Assembly (NCBI GenBank): GCA_000092065.1
Contig: CP000587.1
Strand: one strand, 5' to 3'
DNA from: Ostreococcus lucimarinus
Taxonomy: Eukaryota
DNA length: 64,000 bases
The translations under genes and the position numbers were made by a program. Below are positions 30,875-53,794 of the stretch, one piece after another; the stretch's first letter is position 1, and the number at the start of each line of letters is the position of its first letter. Below the pieces are notes generated by a model. That model ran no database searches. It worked only from the letters and a program-made list of their open reading frames with translations, and was not told where the DNA came from.

Positions 30875-33100
30875 CTATACGAGCTCATCGAGCGGGAACG
30901 CTTGCGTGAGCAGTTCTGGAATCGCCTCTGGGTTGTCGAAACGCTGGCGCAGCTCCGTCTCTTGCGTGGGCACTAAGTGCACCGAGTTGCGCAAGTACGT
31001 CGGGTTAACGTCGATGTCCCAGCCGTATGCTTCTTTGATTCTCTTCAACGTTTGTACTTGGCGAGCCGCGGTTGCCAAATGCTCTTCGTACACCAAGTGC
31101 ACGTATTGCCGCTTGCGCGCTCGCATTTCATTCATGAAGAACTCAATCCAGTCGTGTCTTTCTTGGAAAGTTTGCTTGAACTTTTCAAAGTCAAACACAA
31201 CTTGTGTCGGTATGGTTTCGTCCTTCGATTCCGGTTTCAACGGATCCGAGAACTTCATCCAAACACCCGTCTCCTCAGCCGCCGCCAACGAAGCGTATTG
31301 GGCGAGAATGTTCGCGCGCTCAAGGAAGAAGACGTTCGCCTTGGGGAATTCATCCAAGATCGTACGTGCGATGCGTCTGGTCGCTCGAGCACCACCCAAG
31401 GCGTTGTTCCAACCAATTCTCGTCATCACGTACCGATAACCGTGTCTCGCCGCGCCCAACAAAAGCTGATCGAGGAACGTACGCGGGTGGTTCACCAAGT
31501 TGTTGAAGACGTCCTCGTCGACGCCGAGCTGCAAAATCTTCGGCTTCATGTCCCGCGTCACCCAGTCCATCTCTAACGCACGTTCTGACCACAAATCTCC
31601 AATGTCCAAGAATCTGTTGTACAAAGGAATATCAGAGTGGAAACCGGTGTCATCTTCCCAAACCACCGTGTCTTCGTCGGCGTTGAATGCTTGTCGCAAG
31701 AGTTCAGACATCAGCTGTGCGCCGGAACGCGCTGTGTTCGCTAACACCACGAGCTGCGCCGAGACGTCGGCCGTACCGAGCAAGCCCATGCGGCGATTCA
31801 CGAGCTTTTCAGTCATGACATCTACGTTATCAGCCTCGGACCAACGAACTTGATCGAGAATGAAATCGAAAATGAAAGACGAAGGATCGTGCACGTAGTT
31901 GAGCGTCCAGTCTACTAAACGCTGCGTTTTCACCTCGGGATCGCATCCCGTCCACGACTTGCCGAGACTGAAATGATCCAGCGCAGTCGCATCGGGGTAG
32001 AGCTTACGAATCTCCTTGCAAGGAACTTTGATGCGCCAAATCTTCTCCGGGTCGTTTTTATCTACGACGAGCTTGGAGCCCTTCTTTGACACGCGTTCGC
32101 CCACTAAAGCTTCGTGATCAACCTGCTCTAAGCACATGTCTCGCCCATCTTGGCCGCACAGCAATGGATACGCAGTATCGCGATCTAAAATGACAGCGTT
32201 ATCGAAATGTAACACCTTGAGCGTCAAGTACATCGGCCCCGTCCAGGCGTTCGCGATGCAGTGCTCGTCGAACGGAATGGCGTCGAGATATTCCTTATTG
32301 GTGATCAGCGACGCAAACAGTGCGGAATGCTTCTCCAGCGCCCCCATGAAACCAGCTGATGCGAATCGTTTGTCTCCCCCGGGATCCGCCACTAAGAAAA
32401 CCTCCTTACCGAGCGTCGCCGTGACGGAGAACAAATCCGTCGGGTCTCTCAAGAGCTCGATGTTTGTATCCATGTACAGCCCACCGTGGTGATACATGAT
32501 CTCAAACTTCATCAAATCCCCAATCATCGAAAACACGTTTTCATGATGCTTTAAGTTGTACTTTAACGCACGCTTGATGGTGTGATAGGTGTACGGAAAG
32601 TTTTCAGGCGTAATGTCCGCGCTCCGCCAAAGCTTGATCTTCCATCCCACCTTGTGAAGAATCTTCTTGTTCTGGTTCAAGAACGCGCGCTTCACGTTCG
32701 GCAGCTCTGAGCCGAGCCAAATCGCGTGCCCCACGGGTTTCACCTTCAAGTGATGCACCTTGCCATCCGTCGGGTACTCATTCGTGGGATACCCATCGCC
32801 GGGATACCCGTCGCCGGGATACCCGGTCGCCCCGAGCGAGGCGAATCGCCTCGCACGCGCGTGTCTCTCACCCTCTCGCACGTACCCAAACGCCACCGCT
32901 ACGACAACAGCGACGAATGAAACTAAACTCACGATCCCACGCACGCTCACCAACCCATCTCTCCGCGTTCGACGCCCCGGACTCGTCGTCGGCTCGTCCT
33001 CGAGCGCGCGATCCTCGCTCGCCGCCGCGCTCGTCGACGTCCCCAGCAACGCCACGCGCTCCGTCGCGCTCGCTCGCGCGCTCGGTATCATCCCGAGCAT
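30875..33100 (-). CDS. Type-II membrane fusion protein: GT32-like (Gly_transf_sug, DXD) glycosyltransferase domain plus Stf0/NodH-family sulfotransferase domain
   Basis: ATG at 33100-33098. N-terminal TM segment GIVSLVSFVAVVVAVAFGYV. GT32 block HAIWLGSELP...WKIKLW...SMIGDLMKFEIMYHHGGLYMDTNIELLRDP (SDxxR..l.YGGxYxDtD pattern). C-terminal block FFLERANILAQYASLAAAEETGVWMKF matches the Stf0/NodH lxRxdxxxQAxSxxxAxxTGxW motif. A short GYPGDGYPGDGYP peptide repeat precedes the catalytic part. Confidence 0.7.
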   Translation of the reverse strand: MLGMIPSARASATERVALLGTSTSAAASEDRALEDEPTTSPGRRTRRDGLVSVRGIVSLVSFVAVVVAVAFGYVREGERHARARRFASLGATGYPGDGYPGDGYPTNEYPTDGKVHHLKVKPVGHAIWLGSELPNVKRAFLNQNKKILHKVGWKIKLWRSADITPENFPYTYHTIKRALKYNLKHHENVFSMIGDLMKFEIMYHHGGLYMDTNIELLRDPTDLFSVTATLGKEVFLVADPGGDKRFASAGFMGALEKHSALFASLITNKEYLDAIPFDEHCIANAWTGPMYLTLKVLHFDNAVILDRDTAYPLLCGQDGRDMCLEQVDHEALVGERVSKKGSKLVVDKNDPEKIWRIKVPCKEIRKLYPDATALDHFSLGKSWTGCDPEVKTQRLVDWTLNYVHDPSSFIFDFILDQVRWSEADNVDVMTEKLVNRRMGLLGTADVSAQLVVLANTARSGAQLMSELLRQAFNADEDTVVWEDDTGFHSDIPLYNRFLDIGDLWSERALEMDWVTRDMKPKILQLGVDEDVFNNLVNHPRTFLDQLLLGAARHGYRYVMTRIGWNNALGGARATRRIARTILDEFPKANVFFLERANILAQYASLAAAEETGVWMKFSDPLKPESKDETIPTQVVFDFEKFKQTFQERHDWIEFFMNEMRARKRQYVHLVYEEHLATAARQVQTLKRIKEAYGWDIDVNPTYLRNSVHLVPTQETELRQRFDNPEAIPELLTQAFPLDELV

Positions 33101-45875: not shown

Positions 45876-46415
45876 ATGGGCGAGCGCGGCGACGACGGCG
45901 CTCGCGATGGCGCCGAGCCGTCGTCGTCGTCATCGTCGCCGTCCTTCGCCCTGGTCTTGCTCCCGAGCGGGTTCGTCGTGCGCCCCGTGCCGCCGTGGCC
46001 CGATGCGCGTCGGACGTCCCGGTTGGCGCACGCGCAGCGCGCGCTGGACGCGCTGACGCATCAGTACGACCGGGCGTGGCGAGAGATCGCGAGCGACGTA
46101 TTGCACCGAGGCGTGATGCCGGCAAACGGGGCGCTGAGCGCGCTGCCGATCGTGTACGTCGACGGTGGATGCGCGTGCGAGGTTTGGGACTATCGCGGCG
46201 GCGCGGCGAACGCCGTCGCCGACGTTCGGACGGTGCGGTTGCGAGCGACGTCGGCGACGATCGCGCGGGACGCGGAGATAGAAGCAAATGCGATGGAGGC
46301 GTTGGAAGACGAGGACGCGGCGACGATGCGGCGGTTGCGTTTAGAGGGAGCTCTGCTCGCGGCGACGAAGCCGGCGCTGCGCCTGGAATCGCCTTCGCGC
46401 GAAGACGCTTCTTAG
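45876..46415 (+). CDS. Hypothetical protein (179 aa)
   Basis: ATG at 45876. Mostly non-repetitive. No recognisable motif. Confidence 0.3.
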   Translation: MGERGDDGARDGAEPSSSSSSPSFALVLLPSGFVVRPVPPWPDARRTSRLAHAQRALDALTHQYDRAWREIASDVLHRGVMPANGALSALPIVYVDGGCACEVWDYRGGAANAVADVRTVRLRATSATIARDAEIEANAMEALEDEDAATMRRLRLEGALLAATKPALRLESPSREDAS

Positions 46416-46424
46416 TTGCCACGA

Positions 46425-46543
46425 CGCGCGCGCGCGCGTCGAGACGGCGAATAGCTCGCTCGCCCATAGTGTATTTTTATATATTGCAGTTTTCTAGCGA
46501 ATCTAGGCGCGATCGCACCGCGCGCGCGCGCGTCGAGACTGCG
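46425..46543. promoter_or_regulatory. Pair of 25-bp direct repeats (cgcgcgcgcgcgcgtcgagac[g/t]gcg) flanking an AT-rich TATA-like segment upstream of the TIG/EGF protein gene
   Basis: Copy 1 at 46425-46449. Copy 2 at 46519-46543. Between them lies gtgtatttttatatattgcag. Confidence 0.5.
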
Positions 46544-46708
46544 CTGACAAGCCCTCGAGAGCGTGGCCCGAAATCTCGAGGCCGTTGGCGTGCGAGCCGC
46601 GGCATAGCACGCCTCGCATATCACGCCCGCGAGCGTCCATGCGCACCGACGACGCGCGCAAAACGTAAAACACGCGCGTCCGCGCGCGTCTTCGCGTCGA
46701 ACGGCGCG

Positions 46709-49700
46709 ATGCGCGCCGCGAGGTACCGTCGCGCGCGTCGACGCGTCGACGACCGGGACAGCGGCCGCGGCCGTGGTGTCGTCGCGCTGTGCGCGGTCGT
46801 CGTCGCGCTCGCGCGGGTGAGAACGAGCGGTGGTGAAGCGATATGGGGGTTAGAGACCGTGTACGATGGTTTGGGGTATAATCCAGAGTTCCCGACGCAG
46901 GTTTGCGGCCCGTCCAAGGATGGGAACTCTTTTCGCGCCGCGGGTTGCAAACCGGCGATTACAGAGAAGGATTCGTACGGCACCGCGGGTGATCCGGGAT
47001 TTAGTTTCGCGAGGTACGCGTATAAAGGAAAATCATACGGGCCACCATATAATAATGTAGCGGACGTGGCGGCGTGTACGTACTCGTTGACGTACGCCGC
47101 GGCGGAGGCGGCGGGCCTGGAGCACTGCTTTTACGCTCCGTACACGGGTGGCGTGCCGACGACGACGGTGCAGAAGACGACGACGAACTTGGGATACTCC
47201 ACTCTAGGTTGGCGTCTACCCTTGGCTGAATGGCGAGATAAGTTGCCGGATTACGTGGTGGAACGATACGAATTACCGCCGCTTCGGTTGGGCTTCGAGG
47301 AGGGGACGTTTTGGCCGAATTGGAAGCTACTCTCGAGCGGTTTGCCAAACTTTGCCGTGACGAAGACATGTTTTCTTGAAGCGCACAGCGGAGACTATCA
47401 GCTGTGTAGCGCCTATCCGACGGAGCGTCGCGAAGATATTCACGGCGTCCTTCAAGTGCAAAGCATCTCATTCGCACTCGGGCGTGGGAGCTTGTTCTTT
47501 GAGGCAAACGGCGGAGATAAAAACGTCCCAGACATACCTCAAGACCCGTATCCCATAGCTTCGCACGGGAAAGGTGCGCTTGGAGTTGCGTTAACGAGGA
47601 TTAGCGATGGGTATCGAGTGCTGACAAAACCTGTGCGCGCGAGAAGATATTGGGAAACCTTACGTTGGGAGGAGTCTTTACTCGCACAGTATTACGGGGA
47701 GGTTTTTAGGTTGGAGATTTTCGATTATCGTTCGGGTTCGTTCGGTTGGCTCGCGGTGGATTCTTTCGTAATTCCGCAGGCGCCTGTTATCATCACGGAG
47801 GTGACTCCATCGATTGGACCTCGAGTCGGTGGCACGAGAATCACTATCAGCGGGCAAAACTTTGGAAGTTCCGTTGACGACAAAACCGTGTTCATCGGCG
47901 ATAAAGAATGCATCGACTTACGCATGAGTTATTCTCGTTGTTCGTCCGATACCACCGTTTGTGCTGGTGCGTTGAGCTGTACTACACCAGCAGGTTCCGG
48001 GGTAGGTCTCACAGTAGCGGTGGTGATTGGAGACCCAACCGTCGTCCGCATCGCAGGGCCGCGAGGTGGGTTCCAAGCGGGTTTTTGCGGCGATGAATCG
48101 ACCGAGCATCCCTTCTCCGAATGTGCAATAGATGCAATCGATGCTGTCGCTGGAGCGCGAAAGCGTGGCTTTACTTACGCTGATCCTCCGACGGTGACAA
48201 GTACGCCAGTCACGAGTGCGATCCAAGACATTCAGTACGAGTACACGCTCATTGCTACGGACCCAGACGAGAACGACTTATTGACGTATACGGCAATTAC
48301 GTTACCAACGTTTTTGCAGTTTGATCCAACGACTCGTCTACTTACTGGCGTGCCATTACGGTCAGATGTACAATGTAGGAGCAACAATTGGCACCCAGCT
48401 TCTGAGCGCTGCGCGTTGGGAGCAACGTATCAAGTTGAGTTTGAGATCTCGGACTCAATATACAGAGTTCAGCACAACTTTGAAGTGAAAGTGACGACGA
48501 ATGAGACCTCACTTCTTGTTGATAAGTCCTTTCACTGGGAAAACGCGTTACAAATCTTTGAAAAATACGAAGCCGTCGTTGCTTTGGGGTCGGTTACAGA
48601 ATCGCTCAAAGCCTTGGAAAATAGGAACGTGACGAGTCCGACAGAAATCGTTGGCTTCAATTATAGAAATCCTTTGAATGATGAGGATAAAACGATCCGT
48701 AATGCCCTCATCGCTATTGCAGAGAAGCCGAATATCGATGAAGTCGACGTCGATGCGGCCATTCAGTGGCTGCAAACGAACAACTCTGACGCCGTAAACC
48801 TTGATATGATCCAGGCGCTCAAAGAGCAAGTTGCGGTACAGAAGCGAGGAGACGTATCCAGCGGTGCTTCGGCACCAGCGTTGCAAGGCGTCAGCTGGAA
48901 AGGCTGGTTAAATTATTTTAAAAAACTAGGAACGTCGCTCGGCGCTGGATCTGCCGTTTACACAAATGTTGCTGGGCTCCCCGTTCCAGCCGGCGCAACG
49001 AAAATGCTTACGCGGGAGAAGATAATTGTCATCAAACTATCGACTCCTTGCAACTCGACCGCGTTGAACACGGACAGATATATTCCATCATGTGACGCGG
49101 TTGTGGGTATGTCATCACAGCACGAGGTCTGGCTCGGATTCAGTGACTACGGAACAACGTTGGAGGATGTCATCGTGTTCCCCGAGGATTTTGAGTTTGC
49201 GGATCTTGTTACGTCGGCCGTCTTTACACAAGACGTTCCAGGTTTTCTCGGTCAATTAACTAGACGAATGGTGGCGCAATCAGCAAAGCTACAGGAAATC
49301 GCAACATTGGGCGAAACACACCTTGTATGGTTCGATACATCCACGTCTATGCTAACCGTGAACATGACCATCAAGTCTTCACCGGTGAAAGCAGTCATGC
49401 AACTTGCAACTTCGTATCCTTATCCCGAACCTGGAAAGTATGGATTACCCGAGATTAGCGTTGTGAGCTGCGATAACGTGGCGTACGACTATGAAAACGC
49501 GCTCATTTCATTCAGCAATACCATGACGAGAACTGGTGGATCTTTGACCAGTCGTCTCGCAGCGTTGGCGAACGATGTCTCAACATTTGCGTCACGGTGC
49601 AAAAATTTATGCAACGGTCAGGGTCTGTGCCAAGATTCGCAACTGCCACCCGTTTGTCAGTGTTATCAGGACTACTTCGGCGATGATTGCTCGCAAGTAA

Positions 49701-51148
49701 CGTGTCCGAATGATTGCAGTAATAATGGCGCCTGCGATTCGAGGCAAGTATGTACGCACTTCCCGGAAAGCGGCGAAACAGACTGCTCCGGTGGAACTGG
49801 AAAGTGTGCGTGTAATTACCCTTACTTTGGCAAGGATTGCTCGTTAAAAACATGTGCGAAGAATTTCATCGTTTTTGAAGGTAATTCGACGCACAAGCTC
49901 GACGTCACGGCCGGAACGCAACCTATCAAGGACAAATACACCGCGCTCGGTCTCGATGTGTATGACGTGAAGATTAGCGAAACCAATGGTGACCAACCTG
50001 CAGCTTGGGCAATTCAAGGAGACGAGCTTAGCTTGGCGCATCTTGTTGGATCGGCTTACGTGGAATTTACCAGCTCTGAAGACGGAGAAACGGCGAGATC
50101 ACTGGAGCCATTTTACGTTGACTCTATCCCCAGTCGTGGCGTCGCAATCGAGGCACAATATTTTGCGCAGGAGTACCGCACTTTCGTAAAGCGTGAGCAA
50201 CAGCTACTAGATTTGTTCGGCAAAAGCTCATCAGAGTGCAACGCCGCCGGTGCTTGTGCCTTTGAAACCGGTACGTGCTTCTGTGCGACGCAGTATTATG
50301 GGGCCGGTTGTGAATTTCAGTACTGCGCAAATGATTGTGCAGGTCACGGTACGTGCAATAAGCTTACCGGTGTGTGTACGTGCGAAACACACTACGTGAC
50401 AGATGAAACATATGGATGCGCTTTGAAGGACTATAGTTTGATTTCAACCACGTGCACTGACGAAGCACTTGATAGAGAGGTTGATGACGCTGATCTGCGC
50501 GTGCGTCCATTACACGCATCATGTCTCTTTGGTACAAGATTGGGTAGCCCTGTGACTGGCACGACGACGACTTATATCACTGACTTACAAGGTAATGTGT
50601 GTTTGGATTGCTCTGGTTATACTCTAGAGTCGAACTCCAGGATTTATTTTTACGAAGACGAACCATGCACTTCGTCTGCTGGGAACCGCGAAGACTTTTG
50701 CGACAACACGAAAGAGTCCTACGACACCATCGTTCGCGGCATTGGCATGATACCCGCTGGAGACAGTGGGTCGACTCTTTCATTCAACCTCGCCGCCATG
50801 CGTACATCGGATATTCAGTTTTCTATTTTCAAGGCAAAGGCGGGGATCGTAAGAGAGCATTTAGCTGACATCGATGCGGGCGGTTGTGGTGCATGTACGG
50901 ACGATAATCCCCAGTGCGGCGCCATATTCACTATCGCCGTCGATGGTGTTACCGTATGGACTTCGTTGGTGAACAACAAGTACTCCGAGATCAACATCGA
51001 TATCAGCGCTGCCAGTACCATGACACTCTCCACAGCAAAGTACACCCCGCCGTATTGGCGTTCCAACGTCTTGCCTGGTCTCGCAGGACAAGACGCACCT
51101 GCCGTTTGGTGCGATGGCGCCGCTTGGGCGGACGCAGAGTTCTATTAG
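46709..51148 (+). CDS. Large extracellular/surface protein: signal-anchor, IPT/TIG domain, cadherin-like (He_PIG/CADG-type) domain, multiple tenascin-type EGF repeats
   Basis: Hydrophobic N-terminus VVALCAVVVALARV after ATG 46709. TIG-like VIPQAPVIITEVTPSIGPRVGGTRITISGQNFG. He_PIG/cadherin-like YEYTLIATDPDENDLLTYTAITLPTFLQFDPTTRLLTGVP. EGF repeats CNGQGLCQDS..CQCYQDYFGDDCSQVTCPNDCSNNGACDS and CNAAGACAFETGTCFCATQYYGAGCEFQYCANDCAGHGTCNKLTGVCTC. The track ORF from 45995 adds Arg-rich low-complexity sequence. Confidence 0.8.
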   Translation: MRAARYRRARRRVDDRDSGRGRGVVALCAVVVALARVRTSGGEAIWGLETVYDGLGYNPEFPTQVCGPSKDGNSFRAAGCKPAITEKDSYGTAGDPGFSFARYAYKGKSYGPPYNNVADVAACTYSLTYAAAEAAGLEHCFYAPYTGGVPTTTVQKTTTNLGYSTLGWRLPLAEWRDKLPDYVVERYELPPLRLGFEEGTFWPNWKLLSSGLPNFAVTKTCFLEAHSGDYQLCSAYPTERREDIHGVLQVQSISFALGRGSLFFEANGGDKNVPDIPQDPYPIASHGKGALGVALTRISDGYRVLTKPVRARRYWETLRWEESLLAQYYGEVFRLEIFDYRSGSFGWLAVDSFVIPQAPVIITEVTPSIGPRVGGTRITISGQNFGSSVDDKTVFIGDKECIDLRMSYSRCSSDTTVCAGALSCTTPAGSGVGLTVAVVIGDPTVVRIAGPRGGFQAGFCGDESTEHPFSECAIDAIDAVAGARKRGFTYADPPTVTSTPVTSAIQDIQYEYTLIATDPDENDLLTYTAITLPTFLQFDPTTRLLTGVPLRSDVQCRSNNWHPASERCALGATYQVEFEISDSIYRVQHNFEVKVTTNETSLLVDKSFHWENALQIFEKYEAVVALGSVTESLKALENRNVTSPTEIVGFNYRNPLNDEDKTIRNALIAIAEKPNIDEVDVDAAIQWLQTNNSDAVNLDMIQALKEQVAVQKRGDVSSGASAPALQGVSWKGWLNYFKKLGTSLGAGSAVYTNVAGLPVPAGATKMLTREKIIVIKLSTPCNSTALNTDRYIPSCDAVVGMSSQHEVWLGFSDYGTTLEDVIVFPEDFEFADLVTSAVFTQDVPGFLGQLTRRMVAQSAKLQEIATLGETHLVWFDTSTSMLTVNMTIKSSPVKAVMQLATSYPYPEPGKYGLPEISVVSCDNVAYDYENALISFSNTMTRTGGSLTSRLAALANDVSTFASRCKNLCNGQGLCQDSQLPPVCQCYQDYFGDDCSQVTCPNDCSNNGACDSRQVCTHFPESGETDCSGGTGKCACNYPYFGKDCSLKTCAKNFIVFEGNSTHKLDVTAGTQPIKDKYTALGLDVYDVKISETNGDQPAAWAIQGDELSLAHLVGSAYVEFTSSEDGETARSLEPFYVDSIPSRGVAIEAQYFAQEYRTFVKREQQLLDLFGKSSSECNAAGACAFETGTCFCATQYYGAGCEFQYCANDCAGHGTCNKLTGVCTCETHYVTDETYGCALKDYSLISTTCTDEALDREVDDADLRVRPLHASCLFGTRLGSPVTGTTTTYITDLQGNVCLDCSGYTLESNSRIYFYEDEPCTSSAGNREDFCDNTKESYDTIVRGIGMIPAGDSGSTLSFNLAAMRTSDIQFSIFKAKAGIVREHLADIDAGGCGACTDDNPQCGAIFTIAVDGVTVWTSLVNNKYSEINIDISAASTMTLSTAKYTPPYWRSNVLPGLAGQDAPAVWCDGAAWADAEFY

Positions 51149-51709: not shown

Positions 51710-53794
51710 TTGGCGCTCGATCGAGGGCGAAAGTTTGCTTGCGCGGTGGCGTGTGGGTCGAATGGCAGGTATTACGCGTGTTTGGAGAAGGAACAAGAAA
51801 GTGATTCATCGTATTTGTGCGCGTGGGAGACGGAGCAAAGCGCAAACGCGGCGACGGTTGGTGAAGCATCGAAAGAGTGCGTCACAACTCTCGATTTAGG
51901 ACGCAGTGGTCGAGTGCGTGAGTTGGTGGCGGTGGACGGCGGCGCTCTCGTGGTGACGACAACGGGGGAGGTCCAACTCTTCGGGATGTCGGCGGAACAC
52001 ATTGACAAAGCGCGCACGAGTGGAGAGTTAGGCTCTCGACGAGTAGAGACGGCGTCGGTTTTACCTGAATCAGTTGGTGCACTCGTAGTGACGACGGATG
52101 GTAACTTTCAGGGTCGCAAAATAGCCACATTTCTTGCCCGCGCGCAAACCGTGACATTGGCTTGGGAGCTGGACATCGAGCACCCGGACGGCGCGGCAAA
52201 AGCCAGAGTGGCGAGCGCGGCAAGTGATGGGGAGACTTTCATGGTATTATGGGACGATGGCGTCTGGGCCCTGCACGACGCGAGCGATGGGTCTCTCAAG
52301 CACAAGCTGCGACTCGACGGGCTCGATGTGCATTGTGATGAAGCCACATCTGGGAAGCGGAGTAAGAAGAGCGAAGATACCTCACCGTTAGCAAGTGCGG
52401 CGTCTTTGTGCCTTTCTCAGGATTATTACGCCGTCGTGGCGAACTCGAAGGAAGAAAATACCGTGGTAGTGGCCGTTTTTGATTCGCGTTACGGCGCCGT
52501 GCACTTGGCGGAGGACGTTAGCCGAGGCTTAGAACACAAAGTTGGCCGAACGTCCGGGGTGAGCCTCGCCGCAACTTCGGGTAATCTGATCGTTGGTCTT
52601 TCTGATCAAGTGGTTTCGGTACAGTTCGATCTTCCTGAACTCTCTTTAGCTTCGCTCGTGGGATCGCTCAGCATACACTCGCAACCGGAGGCGAGCGCAG
52701 CGGCAATTCGAGTTTTGGGTGCGGAGACAGCATCTACGGCACTCGTACCGCCGCAACACGCGGCTGTGACACCTGGCTGGAAACTAGAGGAGTTAAAACT
52801 TGATGGCCAAGGAGTCGTCAGTTTGAGCAATGTCTGGGACGACGACGACGCACAGACCAGGGAGAAGAAGGTCCGGTCGACTGCTGAAGCTTTGGCGAGC
52901 GGTAGCAAAAAGGCGGGCTCATCGTTACAGACTCTGATGAAATCCCTTCCGATTCCGCAAATTCTCATAGAAAGTGCCATTAGTGGTGGTTTAAATCATC
53001 GAGTGTGGGATTCAGTGACACTTTTGCTCGCCGGTGGACACATTCGTGGCTCTTCGACGGCGAGACAATTAGTGACGGCGCTTCTTGAGGAAGACATGCT
53101 TGACGAAGTCAAGGACTTCTTAGTGTACGCCAAGGACGTTTCTGCTGAAGATATCGTTGCGATTTTACACTCTGCAATGATGCGAGACGAAGACGACCCT
53201 GGGTTGAAGAAGCGCGCTTCAGCGAACAAAAAGCTCGCAGAAAAGGTACTCGACGAAGCAGAGGCATGCGCGTCTGATGAAAAGTTCAATGGCGAAGCTA
53301 AACAAAAGCTGTTTGCCAGAGCTCAACTCTTAGTGAGTGCGTACGATAGTTTTGCACCATGGGCACAACAACTTCATCCCCTCATCGCTCGTCCGTTGGA
53401 TCCAACGATGGGTATGCTAGTGTTGCGTGATCTCTCCAAGCAAGACGCGGTTTCGCTACTTCAGTATTTGCTCGTCTGGGCTAACTTTTACGCTTCATCG
53501 GGCGGCTATTTCGCCCGGATCAACACTCTAGTCGAACCTGGGATTCCCAGCGCGCACGCGGTCGTGACGTGGACGTCCGCGTTGCTCGACGCGCAGTTCA
53601 CGACGTTTTGTCTCTCAGACGACGTCGCCGAACCCGTGCGCGCGCTGCGAGAGTCTTCGAGCCAAATGCTCGATATGATGCGCTCTTTAGCCGCCCTCGG
53701 AGGTGCGTTCAGACACGTCGGCGAGAACTCTCCGCTTCCCGAACAACACGGCGTACAGTCCACGACGTACACCGTAGAGAGCGTGGCTTGGTAA
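51710..53794 (+). CDS. Hypothetical protein (beta-rich N-terminal region, alpha-helical C-terminal region); start unresolved
   Basis: A long non-repetitive ORF. The track start at 51710 is TTG; the first in-frame ATG is at 51986 (MSAEHIDK). Residues before it look like genuine coding sequence (VAVDGGALVVTTTGEVQLF). Confidence 0.5.
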   Translation: MALDRGRKFACAVACGSNGRYYACLEKEQESDSSYLCAWETEQSANAATVGEASKECVTTLDLGRSGRVRELVAVDGGALVVTTTGEVQLFGMSAEHIDKARTSGELGSRRVETASVLPESVGALVVTTDGNFQGRKIATFLARAQTVTLAWELDIEHPDGAAKARVASAASDGETFMVLWDDGVWALHDASDGSLKHKLRLDGLDVHCDEATSGKRSKKSEDTSPLASAASLCLSQDYYAVVANSKEENTVVVAVFDSRYGAVHLAEDVSRGLEHKVGRTSGVSLAATSGNLIVGLSDQVVSVQFDLPELSLASLVGSLSIHSQPEASAAAIRVLGAETASTALVPPQHAAVTPGWKLEELKLDGQGVVSLSNVWDDDDAQTREKKVRSTAEALASGSKKAGSSLQTLMKSLPIPQILIESAISGGLNHRVWDSVTLLLAGGHIRGSSTARQLVTALLEEDMLDEVKDFLVYAKDVSAEDIVAILHSAMMRDEDDPGLKKRASANKKLAEKVLDEAEACASDEKFNGEAKQKLFARAQLLVSAYDSFAPWAQQLHPLIARPLDPTMGMLVLRDLSKQDAVSLLQYLLVWANFYASSGGYFARINTLVEPGIPSAHAVVTWTSALLDAQFTTFCLSDDVAEPVRALRESSSQMLDMMRSLAALGGAFRHVGENSPLPEQHGVQSTTYTVESVAW

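Follow-up and report, generated by a model that had tools for sequence, protein, structure and literature searches.

A gene of Ostreococcus lucimarinus that joins a GT32-like glycosyltransferase domain to a Stf0/NodH-like sulfotransferase domain

A single gene encodes both domains

We analyzed a 64,000-nucleotide stretch of contig CP000587.1 from Ostreococcus lucimarinus (assembly GCA_000092065.1), which we will call the window, and we focused on one gene within it. Positions 30875-33100 of the window, on the minus strand, hold a complete, single-exon coding sequence (CDS) that encodes 741 amino acids (aa) plus a stop codon. A reading of the window that was based on its sequence alone ("the sequence-only reading") had proposed that a glycosyltransferase of the GT32 type and a sulfotransferase of the Stf0/NodH type are fused in this protein. 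The single 741-aa open reading frame (ORF) that it described does run from ATG to stop: the window's list of ORFs shows no interruption in the frame. Also, the two peptides that it quoted are both present in the protein (SMIGDLMKFEIMYHHGGLYMDTNIE at aa 191-215 and FFLERANILAQYASLAAAEETGVWMKF at aa 591-617). We are highly confident that the locus is one nuclear, intronless gene in which a GT32-like domain is fused to a Stf0/NodH-like domain. All of the coordinates that we give for parts of this protein are on the minus strand, which the sequence-only reading had not named.

An exact-sequence look-up showed that the protein is identical to XP_001418999.1 (also ABO97292.1 or UniProt A4S0L4) from O. 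lucimarinus CCE9901. A4S0L4 was deposited under the name "predicted protein" and is uncharacterised. We also found the identical 741-aa product on 14 independent contigs, which derive from different metagenome samples and include one of 764 kb. Orthologs at 86%, 78%, and ~63% identity are collinear with our protein across aa 118-741, and the five orthologous CDS that we extracted have no internal stops. Synteny is kept in the orthologs as well, with genes for Es2, the poly(A)-binding protein, and a rhomboid-UBA protein downstream, and, in the closer orthologs, the gene for Serinc upstream. The ORF has a G+C content (GC) of 55%, as compared to 59% for the window, and its GC at third codon positions (GC3 = 0.69) is close to that of the adjoining Es2-like gene.

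Transcriptome assemblies contain the fusion too. A peptide from the assembly MMETSP1326 (P0005, from Mamiellaceae sp. RCC2288) covers both domains, and so do two peptides from de novo transcriptomes (P0045 and P0071, whose source label is "type:complete"). The sequence-only reading had raised the concern of a frameshift or an assembly join near 31700-32000. The 14 contigs, the five intact CDS, and the spanning transcriptome peptides show that there is none.

The C-terminal domain resembles Stf0 and NodH

The C-terminal domain extends from aa 389 to aa 741 (30878-31936). Hidden Markov models (HMMs) that we built for each domain from the family placed this second domain at the equivalent of aa 389-741 in every full-length member. 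We assigned it to the Stf0/NodH type (the Sulfotransfer_3 clan) mostly by way of its relatives. In seven relatives that were scanned singly with Pfam, the region corresponding to aa 389-741 matched sulfotransferase families only (PF09037, PF13469, and PF17784). A Pfam scan of 17 family members, which gives counts per family without positions, returned the same sulfotransferase families. The strongest case is P0015, a fragment of an ortholog that is 52% identical to our protein over aa 327-741 (E = 6.5e-165). P0015 scores above the gathering thresholds of both PF13469 (35.6 vs. 27 bits, with model positions 4-211 of 216 covered) and PF09037 (24.7 vs. 22 bits). Because this ortholog passes the thresholds, membership in the Stf0/NodH families follows by transitive homology and not from the O. 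lucimarinus protein alone.

Comparisons to proteins of known structure gave a similar picture. A single-sequence phmmer search against the PDB found marginal matches only (for NodH, PDB 9VKI, E = 0.26), and a scan of the query protein against NCBIfam found no match. Profiles of the sulfotransferase domain matched NodH best (E = 0.002-0.02), followed by Stf0 and tyrosylprotein sulfotransferases (TPST). These profile alignments fall on both of the elements that bind 3'-phosphoadenosine-5'-phosphosulfate (PAPS).

The first of these elements is a predicted 5'-phosphosulfate-binding (PSB) strand-loop-helix at aa 452-466 (VLANTARSGAQLMSE; 31703-31747). Its residues VLANTA-R458-S-G460-AQLMS-E466 align with ASQRSGSTLLVE of Stf0 and with ARSGSS of NodH. 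All clades of the family keep the PSB loop, with no variation at R458, G460, or E466. E466 aligns with the glutamate in "LLVE" of Stf0, which we take to be the general base of Stf0. An Arg-x-Gly PSB loop, with Arg instead of the usual Lys, is a hallmark of the NodH/Stf0 class (PMC11625862).

The second element is a predicted 3'-phosphate-binding (PB) strand-turn-helix at aa 589-611 (NVFFLERANILAQYASLAAAEET; 31268-31336), which aligns with LERENKLASYSSL of NodH and with HRPDVVSQAVS of Stf0. Within it, FFLE-R595-A-N597-ILAQYA-S604 matches LERENKLASYSS of NodH. R595, N597, L599, and S604 are invariant, and the PB element is kept in all three clades. Further towards the C terminus, the motif LVYEEHL (aa 669-675; 31076-31096) has invariant columns at Y671, E672, and L675. 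It resembles the C-terminal YEdL motif of bacterial Sulfotransfer_3 enzymes.

Because a full-length model from AlphaFold 2 (AF2) gave no significant fold match, we modelled the C-terminal domain alone. The model of aa 389-741 is of good quality, with a predicted local distance difference test (pLDDT) of 82.4 and a predicted template modelling score (pTM) of 0.81, and its top match by Foldseek is Stf0 (probability 1.00). In this model, the PSB element forms a strand (aa 449-455) and a helix (aa 458-472; these are residues 61-67 and 70-84 of the domain model). The PB element forms a strand (aa 589-594) and a helix (aa 598-611) that carries the serine. This layout is the architecture that has been described for the PSB and PB elements of sulfotransferases. 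The domain is also under strong purifying selection, with a ratio of nonsynonymous to synonymous substitution rates (dN/dS) of 0.036.

Overall, the sequence comparisons and the model support the view that aa 389-741 are a Stf0/NodH-type sulfotransferase domain whose predicted PAPS-binding motifs are intact. The Stf0/NodH block that the sequence-only reading saw at the C terminus is borne out by the Pfam scores of P0015, by the profile matches, and by the fold match, and the part that it singled out (about aa 480-700) does have both fold and family matches to sulfotransferases.

The N-terminal domain is a GT32-like glycosyltransferase

The glycosyltransferase (GT) domain covers aa 117-385 (31946-32752), as judged from Pfam, from profile comparisons, and from standalone relatives. 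We describe it as a GT-A glycosyltransferase that is similar to GT32 and GT44 (or TcdB-like). Pfam's Gly_transf_sug family (PF04488), which is the signature of GT32, matches aa 153-221 with 25.3 bits, as compared to a gathering score of 23. All 17 of the 17 family members match PF04488 at E <= 0.1, but two of the longer proteins that we describe below score slightly under the cutoff of 23 bits (22.3 for P0017 and 20.0 for P0023). We also built a GT-only profile from the family alignment and compared it to the sequences in the PDB. The matches were SetA from Legionella (E = 5e-10), TcdA (6e-8), lymphostatin (2e-7), YeGT (1.7e-6), the alpha-1,6-mannosyltransferase Och1 of yeast (3.9e-6), and TcdB (about 1e-4). 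The sequence comparisons support a GT32-type glycosyltransferase domain at aa 117-385, and on this point the sequence-only reading was right: PF04488 is above its gathering score, and the profile reaches SetA, TcdA, and Och1.

The domain ends at DHFSLGKSW (aa 375-383), which corresponds to the KHWxLGGSW motif of the standalone relatives. The C-terminal boundary is fixed because standalone marine relatives (~260 aa) stop right after that motif. The sulfotransferase domain starts at about aa 389, so just a few residues (aa 385 to 389) link the two domains, and there is no separate middle region. The "roughly 250-aa middle region" of the sequence-only reading is actually made up of the second half of the GT domain and the first half of the sulfotransferase domain.

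Five cysteines that we assigned to the GT domain are invariant (C281, C315, C323, C361, and C386). The domain is clearly under strong purifying selection: its dN/dS is 0.02 in comparison to the closest ortholog (with dS of about 1.6). The full-length AF2 model has a pLDDT of 62 and a pTM of 0.55 and is poor at aa 226-384.

Asparagine replaces the second aspartate of the DXD motif

The sequence-only reading had identified a DXD signature (DtD) in the GT domain. This does not hold: the sequence is D211-T212-N213. These residues lie in a predicted nucleotide-sugar binding segment (aa 191-215, SMIGDLMKFEIMYHHGGLYMDTNIE; 32456-32530) that aligns to GGIYLDSDI of SetA. D195, K198, Y209, and D211 are conserved in this segment, and N213 takes the place of the canonical second Asp. 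The end of the segment reads GGLYMD211-T-N213-I-E215, and D-T-N is invariant in 17 of the 17 aligned family members. E215, which is four residues past D211, is invariant as well, and a Glu at this position is at least 90% conserved among the relatives. The GT domain has just one literal D-x-D (D306-R-D308), which the standalone relatives do not keep.

To put the motif in context, we examined 99 relatives. The second position is Asp in just 1 of the 99; it is Asn in 50, Thr in 16, and Leu in 13, and the remainder have Lys, Ile, Gly, Ala, Ser, or Tyr. Judging from these sequences, the GT domain belongs to a sizeable and uncharacterised GT32-like branch that does not have the canonical second acid. 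E215 could substitute for it.

The GT relatives include dozens of standalone proteins, mostly of ~250-300 aa, which are largely from marine metagenomes. At the positions that correspond to aa 206-215 (32456-32485 in the window), the closest of the GT relatives (P0131-P0276) read GG-x-Y-x-D-[TS]-x-x-E.

A single membrane anchor and a disordered stem

The protein has one strong hydrophobic segment, a transmembrane or signal-anchor helix at aa 56-74 (IVSLVSFVAVVVAVAFGYV; 32879-32935). Its mean Kyte-Doolittle hydropathy is 2.61, as compared to 1.14 for the runner-up segment, and it is helical in the AF2 model. The N-terminal signal-anchor of the sequence-only reading therefore stands as far as the helix is concerned, while the type-II orientation is only inferred. 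Arg-rich flanks are present on both sides of the helix, so the positive-inside rule is uninformative about orientation. The five invariant cysteines of the GT domain favor a lumenal, oxidising location. Together with the signal-anchor architecture, they suggest that both domains lie in the lumen of the secretory pathway, and a location in the Golgi seems plausible.

The tail that precedes the helix (aa 1-55; 32936-33100) is presumably cytosolic. In the family alignment, it evolves rapidly and is poorly conserved, except for a short ER(V/A)ALL motif. With its next residue, ER(V/A)ALL(G/P) (within aa 11-20; ~33040-33070) is common to the Ostreococcus proteins and to the orthologs at 63% identity, and it is perhaps a signal for sorting or retention. 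The stem that follows the helix (aa 75-116; 32753-32878) is not conserved in relatives and is modelled as disordered (pLDDT below 50). It carries three copies of the peptide GYPGD, reflecting a tandem repeat of 15 bp in the DNA (32786-32831; 3.0 copies according to Tandem Repeats Finder). This repeat is absent from the orthologs, so the length of the stem is likely to be polymorphic. The dN/dS of the tail and stem (aa 1-116) is 0.56.

The fusion is found in three divergent clades

We compared a profile of the family to 1.84 billion representative proteins. This exhaustive search gave 867 hits with E <= 0.001, of which we considered the best 150. Most of these 150 match positions 73-338 of the profile only, which correspond to aa 117-385 of the query, or in other words, to the GT domain. 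The two domains are collinear in about 100 of the sequences that we retrieved, and these form three divergent clades that are Mamiellophyceae-like.

The short form of the protein (720-745 aa) includes the O. lucimarinus protein, its relatives at 78-86% identity, and a group at 63% identity. The contigs that carry the 63% group have a GC of about 59% and keep the synteny. The long form (900-1060 aa) is found on very GC-rich contigs (about 72% GC), which might be from Micromonas-like algae, and is 28-49% identical per domain; a fragment from Mantoniella antarctica is in one of the long-form clusters. The third form (719-766 aa) is represented by P0131/P0277. Whether the fusion is conserved in Mamiellophyceae had been raised by the sequence-only reading; the three divergent, Mamiellophyceae-like clades all have it, and we saw it both in assembled transcriptomes and on contigs that are independent of each other. 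The fusion is apparently restricted to this lineage, and it is apparently a new arrangement of two known families.

The long forms P0017-P0025 have low-complexity insertions, rich in Ala, Pro, Gly, and Ser, inside both of the catalytic domains (at columns of about 350-590 and 800-1090 of the family alignment). Their catalytic motifs are intact. One of the insertions comes directly after the helix of the PB element (PWQxxAEPPPAP...).

Among the best 150 of the 867 matches, the sequences with only the sulfotransferase domain are all truncated fragments, and there is no complete standalone protein from this sulfotransferase subfamily. For the GT domain, by contrast, standalone relatives are numerous. 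The GT32-like module without DXD is also found in other fusions, with a PIG-L GlcNAc-deacetylase, a GT25 domain, or a GT1-like domain (P0145, P0232, P0150, P0187, P0149, and P0203). In two of these proteins (P0149 and P0203), the GT module also matches PF05704 (Caps_synth). It appears that this module recombines readily with other domains that modify glycans.

We did not find relatives in phages (tblastn against the INPHARED phages) or in viruses (scans of IMG/VR with the sulfotransferase profile or with the query's GT domain). One IMG/VR contig (UViG_3300021440_000666, L011, 3273-4621) has two adjacent ORFs of which one encodes a GT32-like protein of 260 aa. That protein has a canonical motif (GGLYVDTDFE, with DTD) and is just a distant relative (29% identical to the standalone relative P0152), and it is not from the DTN subfamily. 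The upstream ORF (189 aa) looks GT25-like, by eye only.

Proposed function and alternative explanations

We propose that the protein is a membrane-anchored enzyme with two domains that builds a glycan. For this reading as a whole, including its mechanism, we estimate a probability of roughly 0.6. The signal-anchor and the disordered stem would tether both catalytic domains on the lumenal side of the secretory pathway. There, the GT domain would transfer a hexose from a nucleotide sugar to an acceptor, which might be a glycolipid, a glycoprotein, or an oligosaccharide. The sulfotransferase domain would then use PAPS to O-sulfate the transferred sugar or one adjoining it. Arg458 (in the RxG loop) and Ser604 would hold PAPS, and Glu466 would be the likely base. 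The fusion would guarantee that the two activities have 1:1 stoichiometry, that they are co-localised, and that the intermediate is handed over, as in other bifunctional Golgi enzymes. Each half would be catalytically active, and the two domains would act sequentially on one substrate. GT32 and GT44 enzymes form alpha linkages with retention, and if our GT domain behaves like them, then the linkage that it forms might also be alpha.

The sequence-only reading suggested that the sulfated product might be a scale polysaccharide or a cell-surface polysaccharide. Ostreococcus is not known to make scales, which is why we judged a scale polysaccharide to be unlikely. For the same reason, a sulfated glycoconjugate that is secreted or on the cell surface is a likelier product than a scale polymer.

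Some observations weigh against this proposal. With Asn in place of the second Asp of DXD, a metal-dependent transferase activity is not assured. Foldseek found no match at E <= 0.001 for the full-length model, with its poor region at aa 226-384. The query's own match to Stf0 (PF09037, at aa 581-657) is under the threshold (16 vs. 22 bits, E = 0.009). Also, charged residues on both sides of the transmembrane helix leave its orientation unsettled by the positive-inside rule, and bacterial Stf0, NodH, SetA, and TcdB all work in a cytosol.

The alternative that survives best, although we consider it unlikely, is that the GT32-like module is catalytically dead. The protein would then effectively be a membrane-anchored sulfotransferase only, and the module might be a nucleotide- or glycan-binding unit or a scaffold that brings the sulfotransferase into place on its substrate. 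This would fit with the invariant D-T-N at the DXD site, with the rarity of Asp among relatives (1/99), and with the GT part of the full-length model, which is of low confidence and has no significant match by Foldseek. However, many standalone proteins of ~260 aa, in which there is no second domain for the module to assist, have the non-DXD signature too. D195, K198, Y209, D211, E215, and the TGP motif are invariant, and the dN/dS of the GT domain (0.02) is even below that of the sulfotransferase domain. The missing acid could, as discussed above, be replaced by the invariant Glu four residues after D211.

Another explanation, which we consider somewhat less likely again, is that both domains are active but on different substrates or at different steps. 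The fusion would then serve for co-targeting or co-regulation only, without channelling. No sequence feature ties the two active sites together, and the geometry between the domains is not reliably modelled (given the pTM of 0.55 and the pLDDT of 62 for the full-length model). On the other hand, a linker of near-zero length (aa 385 to 389) is kept across clades with ~28-49% identity per domain. Also, as mentioned above, no complete standalone sulfotransferase is among the best 150 of the 867 matches; such matches are all truncated fragments.

A further reading, in which aa 389-741 form a kinase-like P-loop enzyme (for example, a kinase for a sugar or a glycan) and the product is phosphorylated instead of sulfated, is quite improbable. 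The leading Foldseek matches for the full-length model were generic P-loop GTPases, along with low-probability matches to TcdA/B. A motif scan found no Walker A motif in the query protein, and the domain's own model matches Stf0. Finally, we give almost no credence to the idea that the ORF is an artefact in which two adjacent genes became one through misassembly, a frameshift, or a gene model that reads through: some entries that are truncated at the N or C terminus (such as P0004 and P0011-P0016) could hint at separate genes, but these shortened entries look like contig-end fragments, because their starts fall at arbitrary positions within the domains, and the identical ORF on 14 independent contigs from different samples, the five uninterrupted orthologous CDS, and the de novo transcriptome peptides that span the junction all speak for one gene.

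Comparison to known enzymes

Stf0 is the trehalose 2-sulfotransferase of Mycobacterium (PDB 1TEX, PF09037), and NodH is the sulfotransferase for Nod factor or lipopolysaccharide (LPS) of Sinorhizobium (PDB 9VKI, PF13469). Our protein is just 11-17% identical to them, and on its own it is under the Pfam threshold. Its sulfotransferase domain is about 100 residues longer overall and has an additional N-terminal extension of three helices (~60 aa). Also, it is from a eukaryote, anchored to a membrane, and fused to a GT domain, while the bacterial enzymes are soluble, cytosolic, and have a single domain.

The GT domain shares the HxIWxG motif and the D-L-x-R/K-x-E...GG-x-Y-x-D segment with GT32 and GT44 enzymes, as seen in the profile matches (Och1, PDB 9N3S; TcdA/TcdB, SetA, and YeGT). 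Like the eukaryotic GT32 enzymes, our protein has an N-terminal anchor of type-II-like form. It differs from GT32 and GT44 enzymes in having DTN instead of DXD (as do nearly all of its closest relatives in lacking the second Asp), in its C-terminal PC...KHWxLGGSW extension with conserved cysteines, and in being fused to a sulfotransferase.

A known fusion that involves a sulfotransferase is the heparan sulfate N-deacetylase/N-sulfotransferase (NDST1-4). Its first domain is a deacetylase and not a glycosyltransferase, and we found no Pfam match to a deacetylase family in our protein. The sulfotransferase domain of NDST is of the Lys-type class (PF00685), while ours is of the Arg-type Stf0/NodH class. 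Beyond the shared fold, there is no detectable sequence relationship between them, so NDST is an analogy only (a deacetylase and then a sulfotransferase).

LARGE1, EXT1/EXT2, and the chondroitin synthases have an N-terminal anchor and two tandem catalytic domains that alternate on one growing glycan. The anchor and the tandem catalytic domains of our protein are similar. However, in those enzymes both domains are glycosyltransferases, and none of them is known to carry a sulfotransferase.

Relation to prior work

We did not find any description of a fusion between GT32 and a sulfotransferase, or between any glycosyltransferase and a sulfotransferase, in the full-text literature that we could search, whose coverage is incomplete. 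The GT32-Stf0/NodH architecture is apparently undescribed, although both of the enzyme families are known. Some of the relatives were named automatically in IMG as "LPS sulfotransferase NodH," and one relative is labelled "glycosyltransferase [bacterium]." A survey of the carbohydrate sulfotransferases of algae from 2015 included just A4S6Z1 and A4RZY0 from O. lucimarinus, and A4S0L4 is not among them (PMC4659905). Presumably, A4S0L4 was missed because its sulfotransferase domain is under the Pfam threshold. Similarly, a review from 2024 pointed out that divergent polysaccharide sulfotransferases escape searches that rely on Pfam (PMC11625862).

The sulfation of carbohydrates in green picoplankton is almost uncharted. 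The conserved fusion is a "Rosetta stone" that places one GT32-like transferase and one Stf0/NodH-like sulfotransferase in the same pathway. Through this gene, a putative sulfated glycoconjugate of picoalgae that are ecologically dominant becomes directly open to testing. The fusion also draws attention to a marine branch of GT32-like proteins that is sizeable and uncharacterised and that lacks the second Asp of DXD. Neither the enzyme folds nor the principle are new, as bifunctional Golgi enzymes are well known.

Genomic surroundings and a possible link to viruses

The neighbors of the fusion gene are ordinary eukaryotic housekeeping genes. They encode Serinc, Es2, the poly(A)-binding protein, the rhomboid-UBA protein, an SNF2 helicase, and a protein of the ribosomal L30 family, as well as the ATR kinase, a Cu-ATPase, EF-G, Obg, and Nrap.

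The expression of sulfotransferases and glycosyltransferases has been reported to differ between lines of Ostreococcus that are susceptible or resistant to viruses, and these differentially expressed genes sit on the small outlier chromosome (bioRxiv 10.64898/2026.02.10.705097). Given its housekeeping neighbors, the fusion gene does not look like part of the outlier chromosome; its chromosomal assignment was not checked.

A more specific and more speculative version of our proposal, which we regard as doubtful when taken in all its parts, is an enzyme that adds a sugar and then sulfates it, that is confined to picoalgae of the Mamiellophyceae type, and whose GT domain, as part of a large marine GT32-like subfamily that works without the second Asp of DXD, uses D-x3-E. 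Such an enzyme would leave a sulfated terminal glycoside on a glycolipid or glycoprotein of the cell surface, and this might be a determinant of, for example, adsorption by prasinoviruses. If true, the cell-surface role would link the fusion gene to the expression changes in virus-resistant Ostreococcus.

Elsewhere in the window, we noticed two large ORFs on the plus strand. An ORF of 694 aa at 51710-53794, which is listed with a TTG start, has no Pfam match at E <= 1e-5. An ORF of 1717 aa at 45995-51148, about 13 kb from the fusion gene, contains IPT/TIG, He_PIG (Ig-like), and EGF-like domains, and its product is a large, putatively extracellular or surface protein.

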